A stretch of DNA of 31,162 bases. Origin: a virus. Lineage: Duplodnaviria > Heunggongvirae > Uroviricota > Caudoviricetes. Both the position numbers and the translations under genes were made by a program. A model generated the notes under the pieces. That model worked only from the letters and a program-made list of their open reading frames with translations. It was not told the origin of the DNA and did no database searches. Numbering within the stretch: position 1 is the first letter of the stretch; every line of letters begins with the position of its first letter. The stretch lies in IMG/VR virus record IMGVR_UViG_2582580984_000003, one strand, 5' to 3'. Positions 6,599 through 22,950 of this stretch are shown one piece after another.

Positions 6599-9500
6599 TA
6601 CCGATATGCTCCACTTAACCGACCACCATCACGGGCCTGCTGTTGCATAAAGTCCGCTGCCGCTTTTTTCCCAAGGTCATAAACCACCTTCAGGGCAGCC
6701 GGACCTATCTGCCCGTTCGTGCCATCGTTATTGATCTCGATGTTGTACTGCGGGGCAAACATCGCCATACCTGAACCACCAATATCCGCCACAACCCCCA
6801 GCTTACCGTCAGCACCACGACGCAGTGGCAGAATGGCTTCAGGTCCAGCTTCCCCCATCACACCCGCGCCTTTTGCAAAAGCAAAAAACGTCGGACGGTT
6901 AACCACCGTGCCACTGTAACGACTCAAATCAGCAGACTGATAAATCCCCCCATTGGCATTCAGGGAAAGGCTGCTGAGATCAAATCCCAGTACACTGCCA
7001 ATCCCTTTTATCGATTTCATCATGGTTGCCTGCGCCAGGATTTTCGCCATATCTGACAGCACAGAAGAGGTGAAGGATTTGAAATTGAGTTTGCCGGTAG
7101 TGACAAAAGTTGCCAGGCCATTTCCCATGTTGCTGAAGGCTGACGAGAACACCTGTTCTGCTGTTCCTGCCGTATTATCTGCATCCACGGTAAAATCCTG
7201 AAATGCACGCAGGACTCCGTTTTTCCAGTTACCCTGAGCAATTTCAAGCTGTTGCCAGTAACGGCGATTCTCATTCAGTTGTCGGTTCAGGCTCTCCGTC
7301 AGCGCCTGCTCGGCCTTTCTGTAGTCATCCGTGTTATATGTCCCTTTCTGCTCACTATCCCGCCTCAACTGCTCCAGCTGTTGCTGGTATTTCTGGCGAA
7401 GACTCAGTTGTACCTGATATCGCTGCCGCTGCTGATCACCCATACCCACCGTGGCGATATCCTGGTCATGTTGCTGACGCTGAGCGCGCTCTTCTTCAGC
7501 CAGTTGACTGGTCAGCTGAATTGTTTTTTTCTTCAGATCGTTGAGTGCCGTCTGTTTCTGAAGCTCCTGCTGTTTTACATCCAGCAGCGTCAGTGCCTGA
7601 ATCAGTTCATCTTTACGGGCCAGCACACTCTTTTCATCTGCCGTCAGTTTTTTCCCGTCCAGATCGCTGATGCGCTGCTGCAGAGCCAGAAGCTGTTTAT
7701 GCGCTTCTGTCATCCTGTCAGTGGCAATGCCTGCTGACTGTCTTGCAGCAGCAATCTGTCCTTCCACCTGTGCCTGTTGCTGGCTGTACTGCAGCAATAA
7801 CCGGGTGGCCTCATCATTACGGGTTTCGCGTGTTTTTTTCTTACCGGATGCCAGGGCTTTCTCGTAACGTTCATTTTCACGTTGTATCGCCGCATCCCTG
7901 ACAGCCTGATCGGCGTACTGCATGGCATTAATACGCGCAATTTCACGCTGATGTCGTGCAGCTTCCGTTTCATTCATCCGATTCAGTGCAGCATTTTCAG
8001 CATTACGGCGTTTCTGTTGCTCCTGATAATTCCGCTCTGCCTGCTCTTTTGCATCCTGCAAATCCTTCTGGCGTTTTTTCTCCTGAAGATCGTTAAGACG
8101 CTGCTGATCGTATTCAACCTGAGAAGATGATGCCGTCCAGGGGAGTCTTTTCGCCCGCGACACTTTCTCCTGCAAAGTGGCAATCTGCGCATCCAGCGAA
8201 TCTTCACGACCAATATTCATGGCCGCATCCCAGAAACGACTCCATAAATCAGACAGATACTTCAGCGTACTGCCCAGCGCATTGAGGTTATTATCAATAT
8301 CCGCAGTACGTCGACCGGTTTCCTCTGCCAGTGCAGACATGGCTATCCGTGCCGCATCACTGGACCGCCCCTGTTCCCCAAGGACGCGTATCTGCTCAAG
8401 CTGAGTGGCAGTAAGAAAATGCAGCTCATTGTCCAGAGCCTTCGCGGCATTTACAGGATCATCCTTCAGCCGCTTAAACTGACTTATGGTATCGCTGACC
8501 GACTGGCCAACCGATCGCTCCATCTGTGCGGCAGCTCTCGCCACCATACTGATATCGTTTCCACGAAATGCACCACTCCCCACCACCTGAGCCAGCGCAC
8601 CGACTGCAGCATGTTGCGTGATACCATTCCCGGAAATAGCACGACTGAGCGTCCACAGCTGCCCGGCAGTGACTCCGGCATAATGCCCCGTCAGCGACAG
8701 CTGGCGGTTAAATTCTTCCCCCTCCTTCTGACCGTCATACCAGGCTTTACCCAGACCATAGACAGCCGCGGCAATACCACCAATAACCCCGCCAAGCATC
8801 ATGCCTTTCGGTGACATCAGTGTGTCTATCCACCCGGCACGGTTAGCCAGCGTTATTCCGGATCCCCTCAGCGCACCTAAATTTCCGCGGGCCAGTTCAC
8901 CTATCAGAACGCCTATCTCCTGACGGGCCGCTGCACTTTTCAGACCCAGCGAATGCGTGGCTTTTCCTGCCTGCTCCATTTTGCGGATATACACTTCTGC
9001 AGCACTGCTTACCCCCAGCTGGGCAGCCCTGGCACGAAGCAACTCAGAAGAAGAAAGATTCTGGCGGGTTGCCTGCTCTTTAAGCTGACGGATAAACGCC
9101 ACTTTCTGTCGGGTAGCCTCTTCCTCAGCCTGTGTAAGAACACGGGTTTTCGCCGTAACCTCAGAAATCAGCGCCAGATAATCCTGCTGACCAATCCCGC
9201 CACTGTTTCTGGCCTGTCGGATCTGCTGCTGAATACGCTGTAATTCCTGCAGCCCCGCACTGGCCTGTTTCACACTGTCAATCTGACGATAAAACGCGGC
9301 AGCCGCTTTATCCTGAGCCTCCGCCAGAGCCATGGCCTGCGCCTGTTCCTCGCGTATTTTCTGGCTCAGTGCCTCCATACGCTGGCGGGTTTTCTCCACC
9401 TCGCGGGCCATGCGTTCATGAGCCTGTGCGTTCTTCTCCACCGTCTGCGCATGGACGGATGCGGCTGTTGCAGCCGAAGACGCCGCCTGCGTTGTCTGCC

Positions 9501-9663
9501 GGGCGGCCTGAGTCTGACGCTCCATAAAACGCTGCATACGGGCAGAAGACCGTTCTGCATCGCTGGCTGCACCATTCAGAAGGTTTTTGATACGGGGAAT
9601 TTCATTTTTAAACTCTGCCGCATCAATCCCCAAATCAATGACCAGGTTAGCTATCTGGTCCAT
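6598..9663 (-). CDS. H: Tail tape measure protein H
   Basis: ORF-track ORF is 1031 aa from a TTG; trimmed to ATG at 9663..9661, preceded by GGAGGTG (1021 aa). Coiled-coil Q/E/R/A-rich core; C-terminus NNDGTNGQIGPAALKVVYDLGKK..RDGG matches the lambda gpH C-terminal motif. Confidence 0.88.
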   Translation of the reverse strand: MDQIANLVIDLGIDAAEFKNEIPRIKNLLNGAASDAERSSARMQRFMERQTQAARQTTQAASSAATAASVHAQTVEKNAQAHERMAREVEKTRQRMEALSQKIREEQAQAMALAEAQDKAAAAFYRQIDSVKQASAGLQELQRIQQQIRQARNSGGIGQQDYLALISEVTAKTRVLTQAEEEATRQKVAFIRQLKEQATRQNLSSSELLRARAAQLGVSSAAEVYIRKMEQAGKATHSLGLKSAAARQEIGVLIGELARGNLGALRGSGITLANRAGWIDTLMSPKGMMLGGVIGGIAAAVYGLGKAWYDGQKEGEEFNRQLSLTGHYAGVTAGQLWTLSRAISGNGITQHAAVGALAQVVGSGAFRGNDISMVARAAAQMERSVGQSVSDTISQFKRLKDDPVNAAKALDNELHFLTATQLEQIRVLGEQGRSSDAARIAMSALAEETGRRTADIDNNLNALGSTLKYLSDLWSRFWDAAMNIGREDSLDAQIATLQEKVSRAKRLPWTASSSQVEYDQQRLNDLQEKKRQKDLQDAKEQAERNYQEQQKRRNAENAALNRMNETEAARHQREIARINAMQYADQAVRDAAIQRENERYEKALASGKKKTRETRNDEATRLLLQYSQQQAQVEGQIAAARQSAGIATDRMTEAHKQLLALQQRISDLDGKKLTADEKSVLARKDELIQALTLLDVKQQELQKQTALNDLKKKTIQLTSQLAEEERAQRQQHDQDIATVGMGDQQRQRYQVQLSLRQKYQQQLEQLRRDSEQKGTYNTDDYRKAEQALTESLNRQLNENRRYWQQLEIAQGNWKNGVLRAFQDFTVDADNTAGTAEQVFSSAFSNMGNGLATFVTTGKLNFKSFTSSVLSDMAKILAQATMMKSIKGIGSVLGFDLSSLSLNANGGIYQSADLSRYSGTVVNRPTFFAFAKGAGVMGEAGPEAILPLRRGADGKLGVVADIGGSGMAMFAPQYNIEINNDGTNGQIGPAALKVVYDLGKKAAADFMQQQARDGGRLSGAYR

Positions 9664-9964
9664 AACGCACACCTCCGGAAATACCTTCCCCAAGATGCAT
9701 CAGTTCTTCGTCCGTTCGCTCCGGTATCCCGTTCTCTTCCGGTAAAAGGCTGAAATCAGCCACCGCAGCATCACTGCTGCCGGACACCATTCTCACGATC
9801 AATGCCTTCAGCGAGGCAAACTGCGCATCCATCCACACATCACTGAAGCTCTGCATCCGGAAATAATCGCCCCACTCACCAAGCTCAGTGGCCGACATTT
9901 CCGACAGCATCCGCCGCCAGTCTGCCCGCCGGAACTCCCGGGCAAGCCGCATGACAAACTGCAT
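9647..9964 (-). CDS. T: T segment of tail assembly chaperone G-T (expressed by -1 frameshift from G)
   Basis: Open frame in the -1 frame relative to G, overlapping the G 3' end; slippery-like heptamer G GAA AAG (forward 9979..9985) lies just before the G stop; position between G and H as in lambda. Confidence 0.75.
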   Translation of the reverse strand: MQFVMRLAREFRRADWRRMLSEMSATELGEWGDYFRMQSFSDVWMDAQFASLKALIVRMVSGSSDAAVADFSLLPEENGIPERTDEELMHLGEGISGGVRYGPDS

Positions 9965-9972
9965 TTCCCGCG

Positions 9973-10362
9973 TCAGGACTTTTCCGGCGTCAGCACCTCA
10001 TGCTCCAAATCCCCGGCATTATCAATGGCCCCCATACCGCTCAGCGACAGAACCATCTCCGCCCCCGCACCCAGGGCATCATACGACCATGTTGTAATAA
10101 CGGATGCGTAAAGCGTCTCAACATCCTGAGACTGTTCCGCATTCCACAGTGAGCGGGAAACCAGCCAGGCATTGATATCCATCCCCATCCGCAGAAAAGC
10201 AATCTGTCGTTCAGCCTCCGGCAGTTCTCCCTCCCCGGCATCAAACTTTGCCGTTCGCTGCTGAACAAACGTCAGATATTCAATTCTCTGCAGCCCGGAC
10301 AGCTCACTGAGCACCACGGACTGTTTTTCATAATTAAACGTGTCCTGTTTCAGAAACATCAT
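9973..10362 (-). CDS. G: Tail assembly chaperone G
   Basis: ORF-track start (10401) lies inside a terminator-like hairpin; trimmed to ATGATG at 10362/10359 preceded by GGTGGAG. N-terminus MMFLKQDTF resembles lambda gpG MFLKTESF. Confidence 0.8.
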   Translation of the reverse strand: MMFLKQDTFNYEKQSVVLSELSGLQRIEYLTFVQQRTAKFDAGEGELPEAERQIAFLRMGMDINAWLVSRSLWNAEQSQDVETLYASVITTWSYDALGAGAEMVLSLSGMGAIDNAGDLEHEVLTPEKS

Positions 10363-10375
10363 GTTCTCCACCTGT

Positions 10376-10399
10376 AAAAAAGCCCCGAATAACCGGGGC
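10376..10399 (-). terminator. Intrinsic terminator-like hairpin between V and G
   Basis: Minus-strand GCCCCG-GTTATT-CGGGGC followed by TTTTTT, 20 nt after the V stop codon and just before the G RBS. Confidence 0.45.
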
Positions 10400-10419
10400 A
10401 AATGATGAGTATCGTCCTG

Positions 10420-11163
10420 TTAACCTGCTGCGCTGACAGTCACCGCAGCCACAGCCACAAAATTCCCGTCAGCGGTCATGCCCACAATGCTGACACTGCC
10501 CTGCTTCACGCCTTTCACCGTGGCCACAAGCCCGTTCAGGGTCACCGTGGCAGTCTGTGGATCTGTCGAATGCACACTGATCGCTTTGTCACTGGCTCCG
10601 TCAGGTTTTACTGTAAAGGTCAGCGTGGTGGTTGCTCCCACTTTTACACTGGCAGATGCCGGTGCCACCGTCAGCCCGGTAACGCTCACTGTTTCAGTGC
10701 CTTCCTCTGCCAGATACGGACGCCCCACACCGCTGATTTTCACTGTGCGGGTCATCACGTCTTTTGAGGCAATGGTTTTACCCAGTGAACTCAGCCAGCC
10801 ACGGAAAACATCAACAGTACCGTTGGGATATTTGATACGAAACGCGCAGACTTCACCGGAGTCGAACAACTGAACCAGTTTTTTCTGCCCGCTGTCACCC
10901 GGACGCCAGGCCAGCGTCGCCGAAGTATCACCAACGGATTTCTGCCCCTGGGTTGTCGTTTTCCAGTCTGCATCTTCATCATCGAGATAAGTGTCATCTT
11001 CTGCATCAGCGGTCATTTCGCCAGGTTGCAGATCCTTCACCATCGCAAGACGCAGCCAGTCAGTGTCCGACAAAGGATTCGCAAACGCATCGCCGTTGCC
11101 GGTATACATCCAGAACGTCGTCCCCGCACCTTTCGTCTTTGCCAGTGGATTTGGTGTGGTCAT
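10420..11163 (-). CDS. V: Major tail tube protein V with C-terminal Ig-like domain
   Basis: ORF-track N-terminal extension rejected; ATG at 11163..11161 preceded by AAGGAGGTG. N-terminus MTTPNPLAKTKGAGTTFWMYTGNGD..ANPLSD resembles lambda gpV; C-terminal ~90 aa is Thr/Val-rich Ig-like. Confidence 0.9.
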   Translation of the reverse strand: MTTPNPLAKTKGAGTTFWMYTGNGDAFANPLSDTDWLRLAMVKDLQPGEMTADAEDDTYLDDEDADWKTTTQGQKSVGDTSATLAWRPGDSGQKKLVQLFDSGEVCAFRIKYPNGTVDVFRGWLSSLGKTIASKDVMTRTVKISGVGRPYLAEEGTETVSVTGLTVAPASASVKVGATTTLTFTVKPDGASDKAISVHSTDPQTATVTLNGLVATVKGVKQGSVSIVGMTADGNFVAVAAVTVSAAG

Positions 11164-11173
11164 TACCACCTCC

Positions 11174-11575
11174 TTAATTCGTGTACGTGATCTGGTACGT
11201 GATTTCCGCCATCGCCCAGGTGGCCATCTCATTATCACGTTGATAGTTAAAACCGAGTGGGATCAGGGTGTCGATGAGTCCGGAAAGTGCCGGTATATCA
11301 TTCAGGGCAGGAAAAATGGTGCTCTCCATCCACATATCCAGCTCTGAATCCGGTGCCTGTGCCCGGATGAAGACGGCAATATGCAGAACAGCCTGCCAGT
11401 CATCTTCATCCGTCATTTTTCCGGTGTACTGAGCATCACTCAGCCACACCGCCACGGCAGGCAGTTCCTGCGCATCAATAAATGCCGGAAGCCCGTCAAA
11501 AAACGTGGCGCTGTCTCCACACTGTTCCCGAAGGCGTGCCAGTACGACCTGGCGGATTTGTGTATGTCGGTTCAT
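11174..11575 (-). CDS. U: Tail terminator protein U
   Basis: ATG at 11575 overlaps the Z stop (ATGA); motifs ATFFDG and PAVAVWL match lambda gpU (ATFFDG, PAVAVYL). Confidence 0.85.
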   Translation of the reverse strand: MNRHTQIRQVVLARLREQCGDSATFFDGLPAFIDAQELPAVAVWLSDAQYTGKMTDEDDWQAVLHIAVFIRAQAPDSELDMWMESTIFPALNDIPALSGLIDTLIPLGFNYQRDNEMATWAMAEITYQITYTN

Positions 11576-12162
11576 CGGGTCAGCCATAATCTCAGTTGTT
11601 GTTTCAGTGCATACCCCAGCTGTTTCGGCATTTCCGCAGCAATGATGCGGTCGCGGGCATCTTCAAATGCCTGTGTCAGCGGTCCGGACAGCGGGATTTT
11701 CACTACCTCCACAGGAAGACGATTTTTTCTTGGCCTGCCCTGATGGTCATGCCCTGTTGCAAAACGCGCTTCAGGAAGACGCCTAAGAACATGCCAGCGG
11801 CCATTCGCCAGTTGCTGAACAAATGCCCCCCGGAAAAAGTATTTTCCCACTCTCAGTCCTTCACCAGCACGCCGCCGTGTTGTGTTCAGTTTGATGGCGG
11901 GCAGATTGCCCCGGTTAACGCGGATCCTGGCCGTCATTTTTCCTGACGGACTGGCTTTAAACACCCGGACACGCTGACGTACCAGTTTCAGGGGGATCCC
12001 TTTCACCTGGTTATCTCCCGCAACGGTATTCCCGGCAACCTGCCGGGTGGCAACCGAGACCGCTTTCTGTGCCACACGGTTTATCGCCCATGCGCTGGCC
12101 TGTGGCACCATACGGGTATCAAGGCTGTTCAGATTGCGGATGGCATTCTCAAGCCCCTTCAT
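11572..12162 (-). CDS. Z: Tail completion protein Z
   Basis: 196-aa ORF, ATG start; N-terminus MKGLENAIRNLNSLDTR and motif VAGDNQVKGIPL..RVNRGNLPAIKL match lambda gpZ. Confidence 0.85.
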   Translation of the reverse strand: MKGLENAIRNLNSLDTRMVPQASAWAINRVAQKAVSVATRQVAGNTVAGDNQVKGIPLKLVRQRVRVFKASPSGKMTARIRVNRGNLPAIKLNTTRRRAGEGLRVGKYFFRGAFVQQLANGRWHVLRRLPEARFATGHDHQGRPRKNRLPVEVVKIPLSGPLTQAFEDARDRIIAAEMPKQLGYALKQQLRLWLTR

Positions 12163-12173
12163 CCCACACCTCT

Positions 12174-12449
12174 TTACTCAATAAAGATCATTGGCTTACC
12201 GTTAAAGCGTTCATGCCGTGTGACCGTCCATTGTTGTCCGTCATAAACAACGCGATCCCCGCGCCGTGGGCGGTATCCCGAAGAAAACACCACCAGAGAG
12301 ACCGCAGGTCCGGACAGAGCATTCAGCTCTGCCAGTGTTTCTCCCGGGATCACAGTCATATCGACATCATTAACCGAGGCTGTCTTTCCCATCTTTCTGA
12401 CCGTGATCGCATCCATACGCGCTGCCAGCCGGGAAAAGGGATCAGACAT
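12174..12449 (-). CDS. Head-tail joining protein (FII-like by position)
   Basis: 91-aa ORF with ATG start between the head genes and Z; the upstream gene's stop overlaps its start region. Assignment is by synteny only. Confidence 0.5.
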   Translation of the reverse strand: MSDPFSRLAARMDAITVRKMGKTASVNDVDMTVIPGETLAELNALSGPAVSLVVFSSGYRPRRGDRVVYDGQQWTVTRHERFNGKPMIFIE

Positions 12450-12765
12450 TGAGTTTTACCGGCACTTCTTCTGCACTGGTTCCGGCATCTGCCCAGACAA
12501 CCCCGACCAGCGGATCAGAGCCACTGTTAGTCAGCTGAACTTTTCCGGACTTCAGATAAACCTTCTTACCCGTTTTCATATCATCCGTTTTCAGCTTAGG
12601 CAGCATAAACACACCTTCGGTCATGCCGTCGCCTGTTTCACCCTGTGGAATATCGGTCAGCGCCACCGCAAAAACATCACCCACCTGCACCAGATCTCCG
12701 CTGCTGATGGCTGCACTGGCAACAATCGCCACCGTTTTTCCTTCTTCTACAAAATTCTTTGCCAT
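12442..12765 (-). CDS. Small head-associated protein (DUF2190-like; possible decoration or cement protein)
   Basis: ORF trimmed to ATG at 12765..12763 preceded by GGAGACAGTT; 107 aa, Gly/Val-rich, immediately downstream of the capsid gene. Confidence 0.5.
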   Translation of the reverse strand: MAKNFVEEGKTVAIVASAAISSGDLVQVGDVFAVALTDIPQGETGDGMTEGVFMLPKLKTDDMKTGKKVYLKSGKVQLTNSGSDPLVGVVWADAGTSAEEVPVKLNV

Positions 12766-12850
12766 AACTGTCTCCGCACTGCCCCGTTCAGGGGCTGATT
12801 TCAGGTACAAAAAAAGCCCTTACGGGCATCAGAGTTGTTGTCTGCGACGT

Positions 12851-14809
12851 TTACGCCGTACATTTCACCAGACCGCGGTGATCAACTGGCGCGACACCGG
12901 CGTCAATACGCACTTTCGTTGTCACGCCATCCACACTGAAGCCCTCCATCTGATCAATATATGGCGTATCCACACCGTTGAGATAAGCCACTTCAATCGT
13001 ATCGGAGCCTTTTGACGCAGCCAGGTAGAAGGTGGTCTGGCTGTTATCATCAAGACGAGGCTCTGCAATAACGGTCGCAAAATCTTTCACCGGGTTAATA
13101 ATACCGGCGTTAATGTCAGCCCCCTTGACACTTGAGGAGCGAATGACCTGGTTAGCAACAGACTCCATCGCCGTCGGTACCAGTACGAACGCAGGACGAA
13201 TATTCAGATGACGCTCCCCCTCTTTCTGAACGCGCATCAACTGGCGGGCTTTATCCAGCGATGCCACGTCCATTGCAGCGCTCTCCAGTACGTTTGCATG
13301 TTTCGCTTTATCGAACAGACTTACATTATCTGTGGAGATTTTCGGGTTAGACGTCAGAATGGCATAAACCAGATCGGCAATAGTGGATTTCGCCGCACGG
13401 CCCAGTTTCATCGGGACATCGGTCAGCATATTCAGATCATCATTGATAATGGCCTGACGGGTGATACTGAACAGCTCGCCATAGGTCGCCAGTGCAATAG
13501 TGGCCTGTTTATCTCCGGTGGTGACGTATTTATATTCCGCCCCTTCACGCACCTGACGCAGAGCACTGAAGCCCCCCATACCCACACGATGGGCAATTTT
13601 AAAATCAGACAACTGACCTTTCCGCGTCCACTGTTCATAGGTTTCAGGAGCATCTTCCCAGCCCTGCAGAATGGCTTTGTTCGCAACATCCAGCAGAATA
13701 TTACCGAAGTCAGACGTACTGTGTGTGAACGCCGCACCGACCATCTGCATCGGGTTATAACTGGAAACACCAATACCACGTTCAGTCAGTGACATACGGG
13801 CATATTCACGCAGGGTCATCCCGTTGTAGACATTATCACGTTCAGTTTTTTCAAACCCGGCGCGCGCCATCAGCGCCTGGCGGATCCCGTCCCCCACAAA
13901 ATTACCGTTACCGGCATAAATATGAGCCGGGGTATTTTTATTGGATGGCGTGGACTCGCGCCCCATCTCGTTCAACAGCTTTTCGCGGGCCTGCTCCAGC
14001 GAACATTCAGGATCGGCAAGACACTGAGCCTGCAACGACTGATAACGCCCGCCAAACATGGCAAACAGATCATTAATACCGTTTACACGCGCTTTTTGCT
14101 CTGCCAGGACCTGCGCACGGATGCTGTTTTCATCCACCACGGGTGCTGCTGCCTGCACTGGCGTCCGGGAGGCTGCAGGTCCATCATCCTGTACGCGTGG
14201 AGCACTGTTGCGTGGCGGAGTAATCATATTTCGAATGGATTCCGGCATCTTTTTAAATTCCTCTGTACGTTTTGACTGAATACATGCCATTGCCTTAACG
14301 GCTGGTGTCACCTGATCAGCAAATCCCTGTGCCAGACATTCGGCACCGGACATCCAGGTCTCATCCGCCAGCATGGCAGCAATTTCATCGGTGGTTTTCC
14401 CGGTTTTCTGTGCATAAGCGGGTAACAGAACCGCCTCAACTTTATCGAGCAGGTCGGCATAGGTGCGCATGTCCTCCGCATCACCGCCCGTAAAGCCAAA
14501 TGGTTTATGAATCATCATGAAGGAGTTTTCCGGCATAATGACCGGGTTTCCCACCATCGCAATGACCGACGCCATTGACGCCGCCACACCGTCGACATAA
14601 ACGGTAATGGACGCACCATGTGTTTTCAGTGCATTAAAAATGGCGATGCCTTCAAAGACATCGCCACCCGGTGAATTAATATGGAGATTAATGTGGGTGA
14701 TATCGCCCAGTGCATTCAGATCACTGATAAACTGCTTCGCCGTAACACCCCAGAAACCAATCTCGTCATAAATATAAATATCCGCGTCACTCTGGTGACC
14801 TGCCTGCAT
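12851..14809 (-). CDS. Prohead protease (ClpP/S14-like) fused to HK97-fold major capsid protein
   Basis: Single 652-codon frame from ATG at 14809 (14 nt after the portal stop). N-terminal domain carries ClpP-like active-site motifs (GVAASMAS, MMIHKP); C-terminal ~300 aa looks like a major capsid protein. No stop separates the two parts. Confidence 0.8.
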   Translation of the reverse strand: MQAGHQSDADIYIYDEIGFWGVTAKQFISDLNALGDITHINLHINSPGGDVFEGIAIFNALKTHGASITVYVDGVAASMASVIAMVGNPVIMPENSFMMIHKPFGFTGGDAEDMRTYADLLDKVEAVLLPAYAQKTGKTTDEIAAMLADETWMSGAECLAQGFADQVTPAVKAMACIQSKRTEEFKKMPESIRNMITPPRNSAPRVQDDGPAASRTPVQAAAPVVDENSIRAQVLAEQKARVNGINDLFAMFGGRYQSLQAQCLADPECSLEQAREKLLNEMGRESTPSNKNTPAHIYAGNGNFVGDGIRQALMARAGFEKTERDNVYNGMTLREYARMSLTERGIGVSSYNPMQMVGAAFTHSTSDFGNILLDVANKAILQGWEDAPETYEQWTRKGQLSDFKIAHRVGMGGFSALRQVREGAEYKYVTTGDKQATIALATYGELFSITRQAIINDDLNMLTDVPMKLGRAAKSTIADLVYAILTSNPKISTDNVSLFDKAKHANVLESAAMDVASLDKARQLMRVQKEGERHLNIRPAFVLVPTAMESVANQVIRSSSVKGADINAGIINPVKDFATVIAEPRLDDNSQTTFYLAASKGSDTIEVAYLNGVDTPYIDQMEGFSVDGVTTKVRIDAGVAPVDHRGLVKCTA

Positions 14810-14822
14810 CCTGAACCAAGAA

Positions 14823-16331
14823 TTATTCTTCGGACTGGTCGTCGGTGTGCTGCGGCTCCTGTCGTTTCGTTGCGGCACTGCTGCCTCCTTTATCACTGGC
14901 CGGATCGGTATCAAATACCAGATCCAGCTTGCGGTTTTCATCAATTTCGGCCTTGCGCCGACGTTTGACATCATCTGGATTACGACCACCTGCACGTACC
15001 CAGTCTGATTCTGTCGCCGCTCCACCACGAATCTGAATTTTCCAGGCCTCAGCCTCCTTAACAGGGTCAATCCACGGCATCACCGGTCCGGAATACACCG
15101 CGGTATACAGTGAAGATCGGTCCAGATCGCGGGGTAGCCTGATAACACCGGATACCACAGCCTGTTTCAGCCAGGCACGGTACATCGGGCGGGTGACGGC
15201 ACCAATAAACCAGTCCTGCAGGATCAGGTAGCCATCAGTAGATTCAACCAGCTCCTGACGCTGGGCGCTGTAAGTGCCGTTATAGTTGCGCGCTGTACTG
15301 GAAAAACTCAGACGACTGCCCGCAGCCACGGCACGCAACTGACCATTACGAAAAGTTTCAAGGTTAGGATTGGGGCGATCCGACTTCACCATTCCGATTT
15401 CTTCGCCGGGTTTCAGATCGTCGTAAATAATGCCTGGCTGAATGGTAAGCTCGCGTTCATTCTCCTTGCTGTCATTACCATCCGTTTCATAGCTCTGTCC
15501 GTCGCCTTTCCGGATGTACATCCCCAGAGCAGCGGCGATCCTTGCTGCAGTCAGCTCAGAATCTTCATACTCTTTCAGAGCACTGAGGCGGATCAGCACA
15601 CCGGACAACAAAGACGTCCCGCGCATCTGGTGCAGACGGCGAACAAATTTAAGATGCAGCATTCGCTCTGCATCCACTTCTTTGGTTTCCATCTGCCGCC
15701 CGGATACGGGACGGCTTTTATACACCAGATATTTTTCGGGACGCCCCCAGTCATCAACAAACACGCCCTGATTCAGCCTGTTGCTCTCATCACTGGTCAT
15801 GGGAATAAAGTCCGGCTCGAGCGCCTCCAGCCAGAAATGAACACCGGCAGAAGGCGTCAGGCTGTTTATGCGCCCGGAAACCATCTGGGCAAACACCTCA
15901 CCATCGCGCAGCCAGGTACGCAGCATCAGACGTTCCAGCATCGGACGGGTAAACTGCCCGGTGACCTCCGGACTGACAGACCATTCACTCCATCGGGTAC
16001 GTATCTCCGCTGCCAGATCACGGGCAATGGCCCCATTGCGTAATACCGGATGTGGCTCGACAATAATCCCGTTTTTCCCCACCACCCGTTCTTCCAGCTT
16101 GTCAAATACACCAATGACCAGATCGTGGTTGTTATCAAGGTAACGAGCCTGCTCACGTAACGACACGGCCCCGTACTGGCTTAACTGGTCGGCAGTTCGG
16201 TTCTCCCGTCGGGCTTTGTGTGTCCGCGTCGTTTTTACGGCCTCATAAGCCTGGATCACCGCACGGGAACGCAGCCTTGCCGCTTTCCATCCTGGTGAAA
16301 AAACGCCAATCACATCATCAAGAATTGCCAT
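14823..16331 (-). CDS. B: Portal protein
   Basis: ORF trimmed to ATG at 16331..16329, overlapping the W stop (TGATG); 502 aa with acidic C-terminus; position between W and the protease. Confidence 0.85.
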   Translation of the reverse strand: MAILDDVIGVFSPGWKAARLRSRAVIQAYEAVKTTRTHKARRENRTADQLSQYGAVSLREQARYLDNNHDLVIGVFDKLEERVVGKNGIIVEPHPVLRNGAIARDLAAEIRTRWSEWSVSPEVTGQFTRPMLERLMLRTWLRDGEVFAQMVSGRINSLTPSAGVHFWLEALEPDFIPMTSDESNRLNQGVFVDDWGRPEKYLVYKSRPVSGRQMETKEVDAERMLHLKFVRRLHQMRGTSLLSGVLIRLSALKEYEDSELTAARIAAALGMYIRKGDGQSYETDGNDSKENERELTIQPGIIYDDLKPGEEIGMVKSDRPNPNLETFRNGQLRAVAAGSRLSFSSTARNYNGTYSAQRQELVESTDGYLILQDWFIGAVTRPMYRAWLKQAVVSGVIRLPRDLDRSSLYTAVYSGPVMPWIDPVKEAEAWKIQIRGGAATESDWVRAGGRNPDDVKRRRKAEIDENRKLDLVFDTDPASDKGGSSAATKRQEPQHTDDQSEE

Positions 16332-16543
16332 CAGAACCTCGCCAGCCGGTACCCGGGATGCCCCCGTCGTCGTGTAATCAGAGCCGCAAGGCGGCGCTCC
16401 CACTCCTGCCGCCCCTGCCGGATCTCAGATAAGTTTTCCATGGTCATCTGCTGACCATTAAAAGTGACGGATTTTCCGTCCAGCACCGCCATTTCAGCTT
16501 CCGTATAACGCTGAATCATGGCTTCAATATCATTCTGATTCAT
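16331..16543 (-). CDS. W: Head-tail joining protein W-like
   Basis: ATG at 16543 overlaps the terminase stop (ATGA) with GGAGG 6 nt upstream; C-terminus ..TRRRGHPGYRLARF resembles lambda gpW ..RRRGPAGFYV. Confidence 0.7.
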   Translation of the reverse strand: MNQNDIEAMIQRYTEAEMAVLDGKSVTFNGQQMTMENLSEIRQGRQEWERRLAALITRRRGHPGYRLARF

Positions 16544-18642
16544 AACCATCCTCCGGAAGTCAGCCAGGGGTTAACATCGTCAGTTACTGTTTTCTTCCGT
16601 TTTTGTTTTTTAACAGGCGTGGGTACCGGTTCCGGTGAGGGTGACGGTTCGGTACTGTCCGGGACACACTCCAGCCAGGTTTCCCGGCTCGCCCACTCCG
16701 GTGCATCCGGCCAGCGGATCTTTTCGTATCCATGCAGAATGACCAGAGCCTCGGCATACACCATCAGGTCAAAAGCTTCGTTGGCACCGCGACCCGGCTT
16801 ACTCCATTTCCCGTCACTGCTCCGCTCTTCATACGTCAGTTCGTCGTAAAACCAGCTCCCCAGCCAGTCAGGGAAATGCACATAGCCGGGACCTGGCGAG
16901 TCACGCCATAACGCGTTATTCACCCGGTCTTTCAGGGCATCCGTCTGAAGAAGCCAGAGCGGCACATCACCTGCGGCCTGCGCCCGTCGGCCCGTTCGTC
17001 CGGTGTTATCAGGGAATGTACGGGTGATCAGTTTTGCTCGCCGGATGCTGTCGCCCTTAAACAGGTAAATACGTTTACCAAGGCCATCACGACGGCAACG
17101 ACGCCAGAATTTATAGGCATTATCAGTGACCCCGTCTTCACCGCCGGAGTCCACCGCCATTGCCATCAGTCGCATTTGTTGAGAAGGGTCGGAGGCCAGC
17201 GGCCAGCTTTTATGAAAAACATCCGTCAGCAGGACATCCCAGTCTTCCGGATAGCTGGCCGGATCAATTCGCTGGCTCTCCCCGTCGCTGTCACCGCGCA
17301 ATGACTGCGTGATGTTGTAACGATCAATAATCCAGCGTTCGCCACGGCTGCCATAGCCCGTTACCTGAACCACAAAACGGCGATGACGTCCCGCCTGCAC
17401 ATCCACTGTCGCCACAAGGAAATTAACGCCATCCGGCACACTGCGGGAAGGAACTGGCTCTGCCCGCTGCTCAAGCAATTCACTTTTTCGTTGCTCCATG
17501 CTGGCGCGGGGAAGATAAGGTAATCCCCAGTCGGTATTGATAACCGTCTTGAGTGTCTCTTCACTTCCGGTTGTCTCGTATTCCTGTTCTGCAGTAAGCA
17601 GTTTGTAAACGAGTTGCGAGAGTGTCTGATAAGCAGCTGCCGGACCCTCCATCCAGAATGACGCAATACGTGAACGCCGGGGATCACCATAACGACTGCC
17701 ATCTGCATTGATGGATTCACCATCCCGTAACCAGACCCCACGTCCGTTCAGCTCGCGTTTTTGTTCAGGCAAAATCCGTCCTGAACAGGAAGGACACTGA
17801 ATATAAGCCGCCTCACTTGCCAGCACAGGATCGGCAATATCACGGAAACCAGCAACCACATCGCCGCAGGGCTGAAAATACTCACCACAGTGTGGACAGG
17901 GCCAGTACCAGCGACGGCGATCGCCACGGTTATAGAGCGACAGGATCCCCGTGGTTGGTGGAGCCTCATGCGGTGAAGTCCGTCGCCATTTCACATCCTT
18001 CACATCCCTGCCGGGGGAACTCTCCACCAGCGTCATACCACTGGACATAAATGTGGTGGTACGTTTTGAGGCAAGAGAGAAGGCATCCCCCTCACCATCA
18101 ATATCTTCCGGAAAACGGTCATAATCCGTCAGCGCCACGCATTTATAATCTGATGAAGACATGATATTGACTGACGGCCAGCCGATTTTCAGGTAGTTGC
18201 CAGCAAGGAATGTTCTGTCATAAACGTTGTTGTCATTTTTGTTCGGACTCAGGCGACTGACCACTTCCGGGCTGACGCGAAACGTTCTGGCGAGTCGTTT
18301 TTTGGAGTGTTCGCGGGCTTTTTCCTCCGTCATCTGAATGATCAGCATATCAGCAGGATCGCAAATCACGTTGTAAATCACCCAGCCGTCAATCAGGCCG
18401 ATAGTCTTGCCGGTTCGTGCCGGGCCAACAAATATCACTGCGTCGTATTCACGCGAGGCCAGGCAGTTCATAGGCTCAATAACATACGGTGCCACCAGCG
18501 GATCCCATGGGACTGAGTTCCCTGCCCCCATGGGCACCCGCATATACTGAGCAACGGCATCAGCAACCCGCATTCGTCTCGGTGCGCGAAGGATATAACC
18601 TGAATCGGTTCGTGCTGCCTTTGCGGTTTCCTGATTCAGCAT
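16540..18642 (-). CDS. A: Terminase large subunit (GpA family)
   Basis: 700-aa ORF; Walker A motif GPARTGKT; ATG overlaps the Nu1 stop (TAATG). Confidence 0.9.
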   Translation of the reverse strand: MLNQETAKAARTDSGYILRAPRRMRVADAVAQYMRVPMGAGNSVPWDPLVAPYVIEPMNCLASREYDAVIFVGPARTGKTIGLIDGWVIYNVICDPADMLIIQMTEEKAREHSKKRLARTFRVSPEVVSRLSPNKNDNNVYDRTFLAGNYLKIGWPSVNIMSSSDYKCVALTDYDRFPEDIDGEGDAFSLASKRTTTFMSSGMTLVESSPGRDVKDVKWRRTSPHEAPPTTGILSLYNRGDRRRWYWPCPHCGEYFQPCGDVVAGFRDIADPVLASEAAYIQCPSCSGRILPEQKRELNGRGVWLRDGESINADGSRYGDPRRSRIASFWMEGPAAAYQTLSQLVYKLLTAEQEYETTGSEETLKTVINTDWGLPYLPRASMEQRKSELLEQRAEPVPSRSVPDGVNFLVATVDVQAGRHRRFVVQVTGYGSRGERWIIDRYNITQSLRGDSDGESQRIDPASYPEDWDVLLTDVFHKSWPLASDPSQQMRLMAMAVDSGGEDGVTDNAYKFWRRCRRDGLGKRIYLFKGDSIRRAKLITRTFPDNTGRTGRRAQAAGDVPLWLLQTDALKDRVNNALWRDSPGPGYVHFPDWLGSWFYDELTYEERSSDGKWSKPGRGANEAFDLMVYAEALVILHGYEKIRWPDAPEWASRETWLECVPDSTEPSPSPEPVPTPVKKQKRKKTVTDDVNPWLTSGGWL

Positions 18643-19136
18643 TACTCCTCCTGCTGTAATTCCTCCTCATCATCCGCACCTGGTTCAGTCACCCGCAGGG
18701 CTATCTGATCGCGCAGATCATCAATAATGGACTGAACACGGCTCACAGCGGCAGGCTGCAGACCGCAGTCACGTTCAAGAATATCCGGTAATGTCTCCAG
18801 CACCTGCACGACCGCTTTTGCCCAGATGGCAAACTCCCGTCTGACATCACTGGCCGGAATGAGTTGTGCCGTTTCCTGTTCGAACTTAAGACGCTCACGT
18901 TCAGACTGATACCAGGCTTTGCGCTCATGTGCGTCCATTTCGCCTTCTGCAACCGGCGGTGGTAATGCCAGAAATGCCGACACAATATCAACCACCCGAT
19001 AAAGCTTGAGGTTGCTTTCATGCCCCCCTGCAACGGGTAGATTTTGCAGCCTTGCCGCAGCAGTCTGGCGATGTACACCTGACAGTGCCGCCAATTGACT
19101 GATATTCAGCGTCAGATTTTTTAACTCTCGATCCAT
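18642..19136 (-). CDS. nu1: Terminase small subunit (Nu1-like)
   Basis: 164-aa ORF, ATG at 19136 with GGAG RBS; N-terminal helix-turn-helix-like segment LNISQLAALSGVHRQTAAARLQN; acidic C-terminus; ~170 bp downstream of the cos-like sequence. Confidence 0.85.
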   Translation of the reverse strand: MDRELKNLTLNISQLAALSGVHRQTAAARLQNLPVAGGHESNLKLYRVVDIVSAFLALPPPVAEGEMDAHERKAWYQSERERLKFEQETAQLIPASDVRREFAIWAKAVVQVLETLPDILERDCGLQPAAVSRVQSIIDDLRDQIALRVTEPGADDEEELQQEE

Positions 19137-19306
19137 ACCCGCTCCAGAATGTTTTAAACATGCATCTTGCGAACGACTTTAGGCAAACGGTGTTAGTGAT
19201 GAACAAAAAACAATCAAAATCGACACCACAAAAATAAATATACTGTAATATCAATCTATTACAGTAGTGGTGATGACGAATGAAATTTCAAAAACTAGCC
19301 TTTTTC

Positions 19307-19324
19307 CGCGACGCTCCCGCCCCG
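19307..19324. other. Candidate cosN (cohesive-end site)
   Basis: Minus-strand GGGGCGGGAGCGTCGCGG followed by an A/T-rich tract resembles lambda cosN (GGGCGGCGACCTCGCGGG TTTTCG..); lies ~170 bp upstream of Nu1, as in lambda. Confidence 0.45.
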
Positions 19325-19688
19325 TGGCAGGGACCCCCACTGGGAGGACCCGACAGCCTGACAACCGTGACGAGCATCTGAAACAGAGCGTTACATAATG
19401 GCATGGGTATAATTCAGAAGGACATCACAGCATGCCCACACAAATTAGTGTGAGTGTCCTGTTTCTTACTACGCGCAGGACTGACGAGCATGAGGGGAAA
19501 ATACGCGAACCGAAATGCCTTATCTTCAGAAATGCAGCCGGCATCCGAACTGGACGATATTGTAAATTCACCTAAATACGAGGCATTGCTGTAGTTGAAT
19601 TGCAGTACTGTATTAGCCTTACAGTGACAGAATACGATATTGACTCTGTCACTTGTGAAATGGTCAGAATGGTTAGCAGTTATGGTGA

Positions 19689-19895
19689 TCAGTCAACCAC
19701 CAGGGAATAATCCTTCGTATTCTTATCGTGCTTTACTAACGCGGCCTCAATTGCCCTGAATGCTTCCAGAGATACTTGATGTTCTATACATGCAATTACA
19801 ACATCCGGGTAACCCATCGAAATGGTGCTATTAAGCATAGTTTTTACACGAACCTGCTCCTGGGAGGGGGCATCAGTGTATTGATCTTTATGCAT
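19689..19895 (-). CDS. Hypothetical 68-aa protein
   Basis: ATG at 19895 with GGAG 8 nt upstream; last gene before cos; no recognisable family. Confidence 0.5.
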
Positions 19896-20100
19896 TTTGT
19901 CGCTCCATTCGTTTGCTCTTCACTTGCGGCTAAAAATATAACGTCAAATCACTCAGCATGAAAGAGTGAAAGTTTCAGCGCGTTTCCCTTACATAATCTG
20001 TCGTTTGTATTCTCTTCAGGCATACCGGAAAGACTAGGTATTGTCACACAACCAATACCATCGACAATCGAGATTTATATCTATTCGGTAATGTTTAAAT

Positions 20101-20125
20101 ATAACAAAACCCCGTAAAAACGAGG
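20101..20125 (-). terminator. Possible intrinsic terminator downstream of gnsB
   Basis: Minus-strand CCTCG-TTTTTA-CGGGG stem (one G-U pair) followed by TTTTGTTAT. Confidence 0.3.
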
Positions 20126-20190
20126 TTTATGGGTAATTTGTATTGTTGAATAGCATCTGATGAGAAATTGATGCTAATACTATAAACATG

Positions 20191-20364
20191 CTAGATTAAA
20201 TCAATCTTGATATCATAGCTTTCAAGACCAGTCATTTTTTCCCGTGCAGTAAACTGGATACTGGTAACTTCTTTCCCGGTCTTTTTCTTAAGCTCAATGA
20301 TTTTTTTTGTTATATATTCAGAAATATCTGCTTCTGTTTTTGTTTTTAACTCTTCAATGTTCAT
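20191..20364 (-). CDS. gnsB: GnsA/GnsB-family small protein
   Basis: ORF trimmed to ATGATG at 20367/20364 preceded by AGAGGAA; 57-58 aa (MMNIEELKTKTEADISEYITKK..FTAREKMTGLESYDIKIDLI), matching the GnsB family as recalled. Confidence 0.8.
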   Translation of the reverse strand: MNIEELKTKTEADISEYITKKIIELKKKTGKEVTSIQFTAREKMTGLESYDIKIDLI

Positions 20365-20536
20365 CATTTCCTCTTTTAGTCTGTTATGACTGTCCTGGTA
20401 CACAGTAGTGTCAATTATATGGAGCAAACGTATAAAAGATAAGATGAAACATCGCAATAATCAACATACGACGGTCTAAATTTCACACAAACAGATAAAG
20501 ATGATTATCATTTATTATCAATGCATTAGAATCAAA

Positions 20537-20806
20537 TCAATTCAAGAGTCTCATTGCTGCTTCCAGAATTTCTTCTGAAGTTACATGTCGATCCGCTGCT
20601 ACATAAATGACTTTATGATCTCCGGTCAGAGATGGAAACCCTGCAGCCATTACAGTGAGGTGTGTTGTTTCGCCATTTGGATATTCACGCATGATGGTGT
20701 TAACTCCGGTCATCACTGGCACTACCATTGCTGGTTCAGAGTTAAAAAAAACTATTATTTTTTTCATAATGTTACCGTAATATGTGAGTATCCATCGACT
20801 AGACAC
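20537..20806 (-). CDS. Hypothetical protein
   Basis: ORF-track start is GTG at 20806; an internal ATG at 20767 would give 76 aa (MKKIIVFFNSEP..); weak RBS; no family assignment. Confidence 0.35.
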   Translation of the reverse strand: MSSRWILTYYGNIMKKIIVFFNSEPAMVVPVMTGVNTIMREYPNGETTHLTVMAAGFPSLTGDHKVIYVAADRHVTSEEILEAAMRLLN

Positions 20807-20811
20807 TAAGC

Positions 20812-20831
20812 AAAAAAGCTCCCGAAGGAGC
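20812..20831 (-). terminator. Intrinsic terminator downstream of cspI
   Basis: Minus-strand GCTCC-TTCG-GGAGC hairpin followed by TTTTTTGC. Confidence 0.5.
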
Positions 20832-21038
20832 CTTCATTTTCACTTTCTTAAATCTAACGACAGATGGCTAACATTTAAGTATTGTGAAATATTATCAAAT
20901 GTAATCATCATTGATTTACAAAAGATACATTTTGCCCCGAAAGGATTTCTGTCAGAAACATCAAAAGATGATGTTCTATACTGAGAACCATGGCAACACG
21001 GGCATCTAAAGTGAATATGGTTTGTAATATTTTCTACC

Positions 21039-21251
21039 TCAAAGTGCCACTACATGAACAGCTGCAGGGCCTTTAGGTCCGTTCTCAATACCAAATTCGA
21101 CTTCCTGATTCTCAGTTAACGTTTTGAAATCGTTGCTCTGAATAGCTGAGAAATGCACAAACACATCTTTGCTACCATCTTTCGGCGTGATGAAACCAAA
21201 ACCTTTTTCAGGGTTAAACCATTTCACTAAACCAGTCATTTTGTTAGACAT
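21039..21251 (-). CDS. cspI: Cold-shock protein (CspA family, CspI-like)
   Basis: 70 aa from ATG at 21251; RNP1 KGFGFI and RNP2 VFVHF motifs; ~360 bp AT-rich upstream leader typical of csp genes. Confidence 0.9.
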
Positions 21252-21614
21252 CATTATTACCTTTTGAAGAAGTTAGCCCTTGGGCAGAATGGTCCGAAAA
21301 AAAATATCAGAGAGAAAAACCAACAAGGAAATCTCAAGAGGTACAAATAATAAAATTATAACAATGACTGCTTCAGATAATTTTGTAACAAACCAGAACA
21401 CCATTAACGCATGATTAACCAACCATAGCAAGGATTACTTTTGTAAAGAAAAACACACGAATGAAACAATAGCTTTATTTATTAATAAAACGTGTCATTC
21501 TGTCTAATGACCTTTTATCTTACCCTTAAGATTTCAAGGATTTTGACTCATGGAAGAGTCCTTTTTATTTAAATTTCACATTCAGCGCTAAAAATAATCC
21601 GATTTAATATTAAT

Positions 21615-22638
<1,024 letters not shown>

Positions 22639-22642
<4 letters not shown>

Positions 22643-22950
22643 AGATATTTATGATGAGGACGCTCGTGCTTATTGGCAGGATTTTCAATCTTAAAGGAGT
22701 ACTGATGCTGCAGATAAGACTCAACTTTTTCTGACAATTTTTCTGCTACTTCCAGGAAGACTTGCCGGACGCTCATTCTGGCTGCTGCCTCATAAAACTC
22801 CAGCGCAGCTCCTTCAACACGGTCCATGGCGACATCCAGGCCAAAAATTTCACCGTCAAAGCGTTCTTTGTCCTGTAAGGCTACAGTTACCGTAACTTTA
22901 TTCTCAAAATTACGGACTCCTTTCACAACCAGTTCATAGTATTGAGTCAT
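22639..22950 (-). CDS. ydfR: YdfR-like protein (DUF1327)
   Basis: 103 aa; ATG with GAGGAG RBS; sits between holin and endolysin as in the Qin prophage. Confidence 0.7.

Follow-up and report, generated by a model that had tools for sequence, protein, structure and literature searches.

We found that a single unbroken reading frame on the minus strand of the stretch of viral DNA analysed here (the window; 31,162 nt, IMG/VR record IMGVR_UViG_2582580984_000003, Caudoviricetes) encodes both a ClpP-like head-maturation protease and a major capsid protein (MCP). The gene is very probably the orthologue, in an E. coli prophage, of the Gifsy-2 tripartite capsid gene, and is most likely translated from a GTG codon into a 675-aa polyprotein that would act as its own scaffold and process itself. 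The architecture is already known, having been published and named in public annotation. The fusion had been proposed in the original prediction, and profile searches with each half and with the full-length protein, an AlphaFold model, the continuity of the frame in relatives and the identity to Gifsy-2 all agree with it. The coordinates of the gene, its parts and its neighbours are collected in Table 1.

Table 1. Features of the fusion gene and its surroundings, in window coordinates.
Feature	Position	Strand	Evidence or remark
Lambda-family portal gene	14823..16331	-	Phage_portal_2 5.6e-82; RefSeq CDS
Maximal ORF	12851..15070	-	739 codons from TTG; ORF coordinates, not gene
5' extension of the mechanical ORF	14879..15070	-	Inside portal gene, other frame; probably untranslated
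Shine-Dalgarno AAGGAGG	14884..14890	-	5 nt upstream of GTG start codon 14878-14876
Protease-scaffold-major capsid fusion CDS	12851..14878	-	675 aa, 73.4 kDa; RefSeq WP_001136588.1 CDS; NF045540
N-terminal leader			Residues 2-23 of the 675-aa version, PQRNDRSRSTPTTSPKNNSWFR
ATG of the original prediction	14807..14809	-	Met24 here, most likely internal
ClpP-like (S14-type fold) head-maturation protease domain	14303..14815	-	Residues ~22-192
Catalytic candidates	Ser101 codon 14576-14578; His124 codon 14507-14509; Glu173 codon 14360-14362	-	
Conserved junction	14210..14302	-	Residues 193-223 (KAMACIQSKRTEEFKKMPESIRNMI); two short helices
Met211, then nearly invariant Pro212	14246-14248 (Met211)	-	Within junction segment
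Disordered, hypervariable Pro/Ala/Gln-rich linker	14138..14209	-	Residues 224-247
Three-helix module	13958..14137	-	Residues 248-307; putative scaffolding (delta-domain/Nu3-like) segment
Low-confidence loop	13904..13957	-	Residues 308-325 (GRESTPSNKNTPAHIYAG); candidate maturation cleavage zone (inferred)
HK97-fold MCP domain	12854..13903	-	Residues ~326-675
Fusion-gene stop codon	12851-12853	-	
Terminator-like hairpin	12809..12827	-	GCCC-GTAA-GGGC then T7; between fusion and decoration genes; read from sequence
Head decoration/cement protein gene	12442..12765	-	107 aa; Phage_cement_2 1.4e-20; PHROG 122 'head decoration' 2.9e-47; RefSeq CDS

The protein is identical to RefSeq WP_001136588.1, whose CDS sits in a 100% identical genome region, and it matches NCBIfam NF045540 ('ClpP-like prohead protease/major capsid protein fusion protein', scaf_prot_MCP1) over its full length: the score of 984 bits (E = 3.9e-296) lies well above the curated cut-off of 475, and the match covers profile positions 2-651 of 652. 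When the two halves were searched separately against Pfam, the N-terminal half matched CLP_protease (E = 4.6e-36) and the C-terminal half Phage_capsid_4 (E = 6e-55), which are the families expected of them and lie far beyond chance. The motifs GVAASMAS and MMIHKP, both named in the prediction, are present in the ORF translation, and the frame runs without an intervening stop from these protease motifs to the capsid-like C-terminus. Among NCBIfam models, NF045542 ('head maturation protease, ClpP-related') scored 217 bits against a cut-off of 120; the ClpP equivalog TIGR00493 scored 60 bits against 308.6, and the remaining ClpP models stayed far under their cut-offs. By the ClpP equivalog cut-offs the protease domain would thus not be a bona fide ClpP (MEROPS S14), and, being fixed to a capsid subunit, it would not be expected to form a tetradecameric barrel docking ClpX/ClpA ATPases. 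On the capsid side, PF25209 (Phage_capsid_4) spans the full capsid domain and is a better match than the Mu-like gpT model PF10124, which passed its gathering threshold (33.5 bits against 20.1) over residues 535-607 of the 675-aa protein only (512-584 when numbered from ATG 14809). Mu-GpT-type capsids in the PDB were matched at 4.8e-8. Fusions of this kind have two curated NCBI family models; through NF045541, residues 197-649 in ATG-14809 numbering (~220-672 of 675 aa) are shared with a family that bears a different protease.

The AlphaFold model, built from a 51-sequence alignment of 34-53% identical representatives, has a mean pLDDT of 86.9 and consists of two well-folded domains with a disordered linker; by structure comparison, the modelled domains match ClpP and HK97-fold capsid proteins. 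An earlier model from 13 close homologues (75-95% identity) was unusable (mean pLDDT 35.7) and was superseded. Across the 51 diverse homologues Ser101, His124 and Gly71-Gly72 are invariant, and the third catalytic position is Glu173 and not the Asp of ClpP, with 41 Glu and 6 Asp, i.e. Glu or Asp in 47 of the 51. Residues 193-325, lying between protease and MCP, comprise the junction, the disordered linker and the three-helix module, as expected of a middle segment of ~120-200 residues. The linker has a pLDDT below 50, an identity of 0.25 among 8 homologues and a length that varies among close relatives, while the helices of the module (250-273, 280-288 and 294-307) are modelled at pLDDT 84-96. 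This module is a putative scaffold, judging from where it lies, from its helices and from a weak resemblance to lambda gpC/Nu3. The loop that follows it is variable in sequence and length, with a pLDDT of ~50 that falls below 50 at residues 316-318.

The surroundings of the gene run in the order portal, fusion gene, cement protein, then head-tail and tail genes, with the last 56 nt of the portal gene overlapping the start of the fusion gene. RefSeq annotation and Pfam and PHROG profile searches revealed no separate scaffold or MCP gene in the module, in keeping with the earlier proposal that a separate scaffold gene is missing among the neighbours. The terminator-like hairpin downstream of the fusion gene was missed by a simple terminator scan because its stem is only 4 bp; mEp460 and mEp213 have a rho-independent terminator annotated at this position.

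Among the closest described systems is Gifsy-2, whose protein (YP_001700678.1) is 70% identical over 669 aligned residues and collinear over the full length. Both have the order protease, middle segment and MCP in one ORF, the same upstream neighbours (lambda-type terminase, W-like gene and portal) and the same downstream ones (cement-protein gene, PF13856 gene and gpZ/U/V-like tail genes). Of the features that define the Gifsy-2 type, the window has a ClpP-like domain with its Ser and His, a middle segment of the expected length, an HK97-fold MCP in the same unbroken ORF, and the homology and neighbourhood just described. Gifsy-2 differs in its N-terminal leader and start context, having neither the GTG/AAGGAGG arrangement nor an ATG at the 14809 position, in the disordered linker, which differs in sequence and length, and in a 7-residue insertion before the capsid domain. 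PMC8814770 and PMC8538268, with reference to Effantin 2010 (doi 10.1016/j.virol.2010.03.041), give the Gifsy-2 capsid as T=7 with a trimeric decoration protein, and by homology the E. coli allele would be expected to form the same. The gp5 of Pseudomonas phage MD8 (F10/JBD68 group) is 57% identical and has the same three parts in a single gene; its authors, on bioinformatic grounds only, assign all three functions, protease, scaffold and MCP, to this one gene (PMC8508860). MD8 differs in its host, its GC-rich gene and its longer N-terminal leader.

More distant systems share parts of this layout. The lambda C/Nu3/D/E module sits at the corresponding place in the genome, behind a lambda-family portal, and has a protease followed by an in-frame scaffold segment as well as a decoration gene. 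In lambda, however, the protease is of the S49 type, unlike the ClpP-like domain here, an internal start yields Nu3 as a separate product too, capsid protein E has a gene to itself, and D precedes E, whereas here the cement gene follows the MCP. No S49/SppA-type protease domain of the lambda gpC type was found in the fusion protein. [quoted passage not shown] HK97, with its gp4 protease and its gp5 (delta domain plus MCP), is alike in having no free scaffold protein (PMC8508860); as is well established and summarised in the same source, an N-terminal helical segment is fused to its HK97-fold MCP and removed by the phage protease. It differs in that the protease is a separate gene of another family and covalent cross-links take the place of a cement protein. 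The same three-function fusion in a single gene is reported from small actinobacteriophages (Microbacterium cluster EE, Arthrobacter AN/AX/FE and Gordonia CW/DM; PMC7302621), which belong to unrelated hosts and lineages and are likened here by description.

A protease-capsid fusion in one frame, without a separate scaffold, implies self-processing, as had been suggested, and we infer the following pathway by homology. One mRNA and one reading frame would give a 675-aa (73 kDa) polyprotein of four sections, i.e. a ClpP-like serine protease, the junction with the disordered linker, a three-helix scaffold-like module and the HK97-fold MCP. By co-assembly the polyprotein would build a T=7 procapsid around the portal, its N-terminal parts pointing inward and every subunit supplying its own scaffold and protease. 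The protease would then cut away everything N-terminal to the capsid domain, with the cut probably within the flexible 308-325 loop or close to it, so that a shell protein of ~33-39 kDa remains. DNA packaging would expand the shell, and the downstream cement/decoration protein, instead of a separate scaffold or cross-links, would stabilise it. Maturation along these lines would leave only the MCP part in a decorated T=7 capsid, with the middle segment having served as scaffold. The gene would be a compact example of a capsid subunit that brings both scaffold and protease with it.

The start of the gene is where our reading departs from the original prediction, which had placed it at ATG 14809. 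Judging from sequence conservation, translation most likely begins at GTG 14878, behind a perfect AAGGAGG; this is the RefSeq/PGAP start and, in this window, the sole start codon available ahead of Trp21 within the plausible stretch of the frame. The arrangement (A/G)AGGAGG-N5-GTG is conserved in Stx2d phage, Kp4865-4 and mEp213. A start at ATG 14809 would give a 652-aa protein beginning 14 nt past the portal stop codon, with translational coupling, and we consider it unlikely. In its favour, no start codon is commoner than ATG, the portal stop is close upstream, the authors of mEp460, cdtI and PSTCR8lys annotated this ATG as the start, and the Pfam and NCBIfam profiles align only from about residue 9 of the 652-aa version. 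Against it, no Shine-Dalgarno precedes this ATG, and the five codons upstream of it are under protein-level selection. Specifically, among 8 homologues these codons are conserved as protein (S-W-F/Y), with six-fold codon switching for Ser (TCT/TCC/TCG/AGT/AGC) and Arg (AGG/CGT/CGC) and a Trp that is invariant in 8 of 8. The codon aligned to the ATG is itself ATC or ATT in Gifsy-2, Fels-1 and MD8, and the residue aligned to Met24 is Ile in 36 of the 51 diverse homologues. Gifsy-2, Fels-1 and MD8 are without the GTG/SD arrangement and, as far as their sequences indicate, must use other upstream ATGs. With the start at GTG 14878, the predicted overlap of the 5' extension with the portal gene stands, and the part described as untranslated shrinks to 14879-15070. 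This remainder is only probably untranslated, since the median number of residues ahead of Trp21 in the 51 diverse homologues is just ~5-6 and the extension contains no convincing ribosome-binding site.

A second question is whether the gene is expressed in nested form, as are lambda C/Nu3 or Mu I/Z. An internal start at Met211 (ATG 14248-14246) would yield a 465-aa protease-less scaffold-MCP beside the full-length protein, with the shell built mainly from the shorter form and the protease brought in by a full-length minority. Met211-Pro212 is invariant in 8 enterobacterial and pseudomonad homologues, all 8 of which have an SD-like (G/C)AGGA(A/G) 9-11 nt upstream of the ATG, GAGGA being placed 10-11 nt ahead of it; lambda has such a nested gene, nu3 within C, and a gene caller restarts at Met211 in a frameshifted copy. 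Against this, the 51 diverse fused homologues have Ile, Val, Ala or Thr at position 211 and 49 of them keep Pro212, and this family-wide replacement of Met211 beside a retained Pro212 explains the local conservation as that of a protein motif. The SD-like motif is moreover weak, stands at a long distance from the ATG and is made up of conserved Glu-Glu codons. We therefore regard nested expression as very improbable, and give an equally slim chance to the narrower version in which two products, from GTG 14878 and from Met211 behind GAGGA, would be made within the enterobacterial/pseudomonad clade. If true, the nested products would set the protease:shell stoichiometry as lambda C and Nu3 do, which would add a level of regulation as yet undescribed for Gifsy-2-type capsid genes.

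The polyprotein reading is borne out by the distribution of the frame. Of the 5,426 complete genomes of E. coli, 2,017 contain at least 80% of the gene, and the records sampled from them annotate it as one fusion CDS. The frame is unbroken in 74 phage records, including the cultured mEp460 (99.7% identical protein), cdtI, Ayreon and phi458, and plaque-forming phages carry it uninterrupted at 99% identity. It is likewise unbroken in 80 IMG/VR loci (the whole protein being on the contig in 74 of them), which are nearly all 98-100% identical (four at 88-92%) and are informative on continuity and not on the start-codon or internal-start questions. The fused architecture is also shared, in end-to-end alignment, by more than 100 representatives of 50%-identity clusters, and it reaches lineages down to 35% identity. 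Related prophages thus have no general stop or frameshift between the two domains, only sporadic defects (IS629, draft frameshifts and PAN70). A rival reading, in which separate protease-scaffold and capsid genes were joined by sequencing error or by mutation in a defective prophage, so that the fusion would be artefactual or the gene decayed, has next to no chance of being correct and is already effectively refuted. The window is a prophage, and disrupted copies do occur in databases: VT1-Sakai carries an IS629 insertion, the frame is broken in PAN70, and GCA_000755365.1 has a frameshift. Such copies are exceptional, however, and break at differing places, the frame is uninterrupted in ~2,000 complete genomes, in plaque-forming phages and in those distant lineages, and both NCBI-curated models cover such fusions. 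Two further candidates were rejected. P0166, which appeared to be a natural split relative (201-aa protease and 443-aa capsid), has a frameshift within the conserved junction of a draft genome, and the portal-protease-capsid proteins of 1,080-1,159 aa, considered as products of a programmed frameshift, have junctions that differ in position, each a singleton.

As a discovery the gene carries little weight: the Gifsy-2 tripartite capsid gene was reportedly described experimentally by Effantin et al. in 2010 (Virology 402:355), MD8 and the actinobacteriophages provide other cases, and a dedicated NCBI family name stands on thousands of E. coli genomes. Its practical value lies in annotation. Phage GenBank records label the gene inconsistently as 'head maturation protease', 'Major head protein', 'Nu3' or 'protease/scaffold', and three N-termini circulate, giving proteins of 652, 675 and 707 aa; the sequence comparisons favour the 675-aa GTG start over the ATG of the original prediction and of several phage submitters.

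We found that the gene joining a ClpP-like protease, a scaffold-like segment and the major capsid protein (MCP) belongs to the NCBIfam family NF045540, 'ClpP-like prohead protease/major capsid protein fusion protein' (full-length match, 984 bits against a cut-off of 475), and is an orthologue of the tripartite capsid gene of the Salmonella phage Gifsy-2. The original prediction of a single protease-capsid reading frame is correct, yet already known; published work describes the three-way fusion for MD8-like phages of Pseudomonas (PMC8508860) and for several small-actinobacteriophage clusters (PMC7302621). What the analysis usefully adds is evidence for where translation truly starts and for how inconsistently phage records name the product. 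The open reading frame was recovered as predicted, with both the GVAASMAS and MMIHKP motifs in its translation, and each half matches the expected Pfam family: CLP_protease at residues 23-168 (E=4.6e-36) and Phage_capsid_4 at residues 354-649 (E=6e-55), the latter alongside a partial Mu-like_gpT match (numbered from ATG 14809, 652 aa; elsewhere from GTG 14878, 675 aa). Additionally, PHROG 133 matches end to end. On the NCBIfam domain model NF045542, 'head maturation protease, ClpP-related', the protein reaches 217 (cut-off 120), and all genuine ClpP equivalog models in NCBIfam fall far below their cut-offs, so the protein is not a genuine ClpP.

An AlphaFold run with 13 close homologues gave a pLDDT of 35.7 and was replaced by one with 51 homologues of 34-53% identity (mean pLDDT 86.9), from which the predicted segments in the table are taken. 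Ser101 and His124 align to ClpP Ser111 and His136 and, together with Gly71-Gly72, are invariant across 51 diverse homologues; the position of ClpP Asp185 is Glu173, with Glu or Asp there in 47 of the 51. Protease and helical module are joined by a linker rich in Pro, Ala, Gln and Thr, whose sequence and length are hypervariable, even between alleles 90-95% identical elsewhere (e.g. the database homologues P0022 and P0042).

Features of the window and predicted segments of the fusion protein
Feature	Position	Strand	Remarks
Two prophage tRNA genes	25394-25470 and 25571-25646	-	between Q antiterminator gene and lysis cassette
Low-GC stretch	~19100-25000	-	between lysis and terminase genes
Open reading frame	12851-15070	-	739 codons; first codon TTG
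Portal gene end	14823	-	stop TAA 14825-14823
SD-like GAGGAA and in-frame ATG (Met211)	14246-14266	-	
Alpha/beta domain	residues ~22-192		AlphaFold
Two short helices	residues 193-223		AlphaFold
Disordered segment (linker)	residues 224-247; 14138-14209	-	AlphaFold
Three confident helices	residues 250-307		AlphaFold
Low-confidence loop	residues 308-325		AlphaFold
Mixed domain with long spine helix	residues 326-675		AlphaFold
Terminator-like hairpin GCCC-GTAA-GGGC + T7	12827-12809	-	directly after fusion gene, before decoration gene
Cement gene			107 aa; Phage_cement_2 / 'head decoration'; next after hairpin
91-aa gene	12174-12449	-	after cement gene; Pfam PF13856 'Gifsy-2'

Upon examining the start codon, we observed that ATG 14809, the proposed start, is codon 88 of the open reading frame and lacks a Shine-Dalgarno sequence. 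GTG 14878, the RefSeq start (675 aa, 56-nt overlap with the portal gene), has AAGGAGG 5 nt upstream, an arrangement kept in the Stx2d phage, Kp4865-4 and mEp213. The codons from the portal stop to ATG 14809 are conserved at the protein level, not in DNA; among eight lineages Ser20 is encoded by TCT, TCC, TCG, AGT and AGC and Arg23 by AGG, CGT and CGC, with Trp21 invariant in all eight. Since the codon aligned to ATG 14809 is ATC or ATT in Gifsy-2, Fels-1 and MD8, these phages cannot start there. Of the 51 diverse homologues, 41 retain Trp21, 46 have Tyr or Phe at position 22, and 36 have Ile at position 24 against only 8 with Met. Their N-termini lie a median of ~5-6 residues before Trp21; no ATG, GTG or TTG lies between GTG 14878 and Trp21 in the window. 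Because of the Shine-Dalgarno sequence, the protein-level conservation upstream of the ATG and the homologue N-termini, we take the gene as 12851-14878. Judged from sequence, translation quite probably begins at GTG 14878, and initiation at ATG 14809 is unlikely. The 5' extension, predicted to be untranslated, is probably so for 14879-15070, a part of the mechanical open reading frame only; the codons from 14878 to ATG 14809 are taken as coding. Database versions of the protein have 652, 675 or 707 aa, with RefSeq/PGAP using GTG 14878, the submitters of mEp460, cdtI and PSTCR8lys ATG 14809, and some further records ATG 14974; the product goes by 'Nu3', 'protease C', 'Major head protein' or even 'terminase protein'.

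Nested initiation at Met211, yielding a second product from within the gene, is very improbable. Met-Pro (211-212) is invariant, with an SD-like GAGGA upstream, in eight enterobacterial and pseudomonad homologues, but in the wider family Met211 becomes Ile, Val, Ala or Thr while Pro212 is kept. Conservation there is limited to Phe208 and Pro212, an F-x3-P motif that closes the protease domain.

That the fusion is an artefact is effectively excluded by the continuity of the frame. Of 5,426 complete E. coli genomes, 2,017 hold the 1,959-nt core at ≥80% coverage, with 100% identity in many copies, and almost all of 60 records taken evenly down the ranking annotate one 'fusion protein' CDS. Furthermore, 74 phage records carry it at full length in a single tblastn segment, for instance at 99% in the plaque-forming phages mEp460, cdtI, Ayreon, phi458 and HannyBb, 77% in Stx-converting phages, 74% in mEp213, mEp043 and LLS, 72% in Fels-1, 70% in Gifsy-2, 64% in Providencia PSTCR8lys and 57% in the Pseudomonas MD8/F10 group. 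The frame is uninterrupted in all eight phage lineages retrieved for inspection and in 80/80 IMG/VR loci (whole protein on the contig in 74), and a search of 1.8 billion cluster representatives returned >100 proteins of 640-740 aa aligning from ~16-20 to 672 at 35-60% identity. The interruptions in related prophages are sporadic defects, namely IS629 inserted in VT1-Sakai, a broken frame in PAN70 and one draft genome; the single frame therefore stands. In that draft genome (GCA_000755365.1; locus L092, 2411-4386) a protease gene of 201 aa and a capsid gene of 443 aa seem to be separate, but the split is a frameshift within the conserved junction of the fused gene, with the conserved Met-Pro taken by the gene caller as a new start. 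Separately, ~15 singleton database proteins of 1,080-1,159 aa (P0003-P0006, P0013, P0043, P0070) join the portal to the protease-capsid in one open reading frame. In the window, neither frame has a stop for about 250 nt (14823-15070, minus strand), and the junctions differ between entries; separate 1-nt indels or errors of assembly, rather than programmed frameshifting, seem to account for these proteins.

When comparing known systems, we find that the protease is not of the S49 type used by lambda, and that Mu-gpT-type proteins are nearest to the capsid domain. Residues 120-324 align collinearly, though weakly, to lambda gpC 191-425, a span including the Nu3 scaffold part (BLASTP and hhalign; E=0.007 and 0.01; low hhalign probability), in agreement with the HHpred result reported for MD8 gp5 (PMC8508860). 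NF045541, a family with a different protease on the same scaffold-plus-capsid body, also matches from about residue 197 onward (ATG-14809 numbering), middle helical module included; as a unit, this module and the capsid domain are thus the analogue of HK97 gp5 with its delta domain and MCP. Functionally, the gene unites two solutions: that of HK97, in which the scaffold is fused to the capsid protein, and that of lambda, in which a protease is fused to the scaffold and a cement protein is used. By homology, the mechanism is most likely that proposed for Gifsy-2; PMC12315714, PMC8538268 and PMC8814770, each of which cites Effantin et al. 2010, lend support. In this scheme, the polyprotein would build a T=7 procapsid on the portal. 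Its tethered protease would next cleave off itself, the linker and the helical module, at a site that probably falls within the flexible 308-325 loop or close to it, and the expanded shell would lastly be cemented by the decoration protein.

Every gene of the window lies on the minus strand. From 3851 to 23809 the sequence matches the RefSeq chromosome of E. coli FDAARGOS_497 at 100% identity, and a lambdoid prophage is annotated there in the order Q antiterminator, tRNAs, lysis genes, small 'moron' genes, terminase, portal, fusion gene, cement protein, tail genes, J and Lom. All 338 mismatches fall in the flanks (1-3850 and 23810-31162; J/Lom and Q/hokD sides), consistent with mosaic lambdoid prophages. 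As predicted, no separate scaffold gene accompanies the fusion; annotation, Pfam and PHROG gave no other scaffold or capsid candidate between portal and tail genes. The hairpin after the fusion gene has a GTAA tetraloop; the records of mEp460 and mEp213 list the same hairpin as a rho-independent terminator, and it might lower transcription of the decoration and tail genes. The PF13856 gene is followed by homologues of lambda Z, U and V; its Pfam description, 'ATP-binding sugar transporter from pro-phage', fits neither the gene's location amid head-tail joining genes nor the 'minor tail protein' label from PHROG. One of the prophage tRNAs is tRNA-Arg(TCT); the other, with anticodon CAT, is Met per ARAGORN and Ile per RefSeq, in the latter case presumably lysidine-modified. 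Finally, the low-GC stretch (35-45% versus about 54% in the structural genes) carries small accessory genes, annotated as cspI, ymcF, ynfN and gnsB, as two genes for TolA C-terminal-domain proteins and as a DUF3927 gene.
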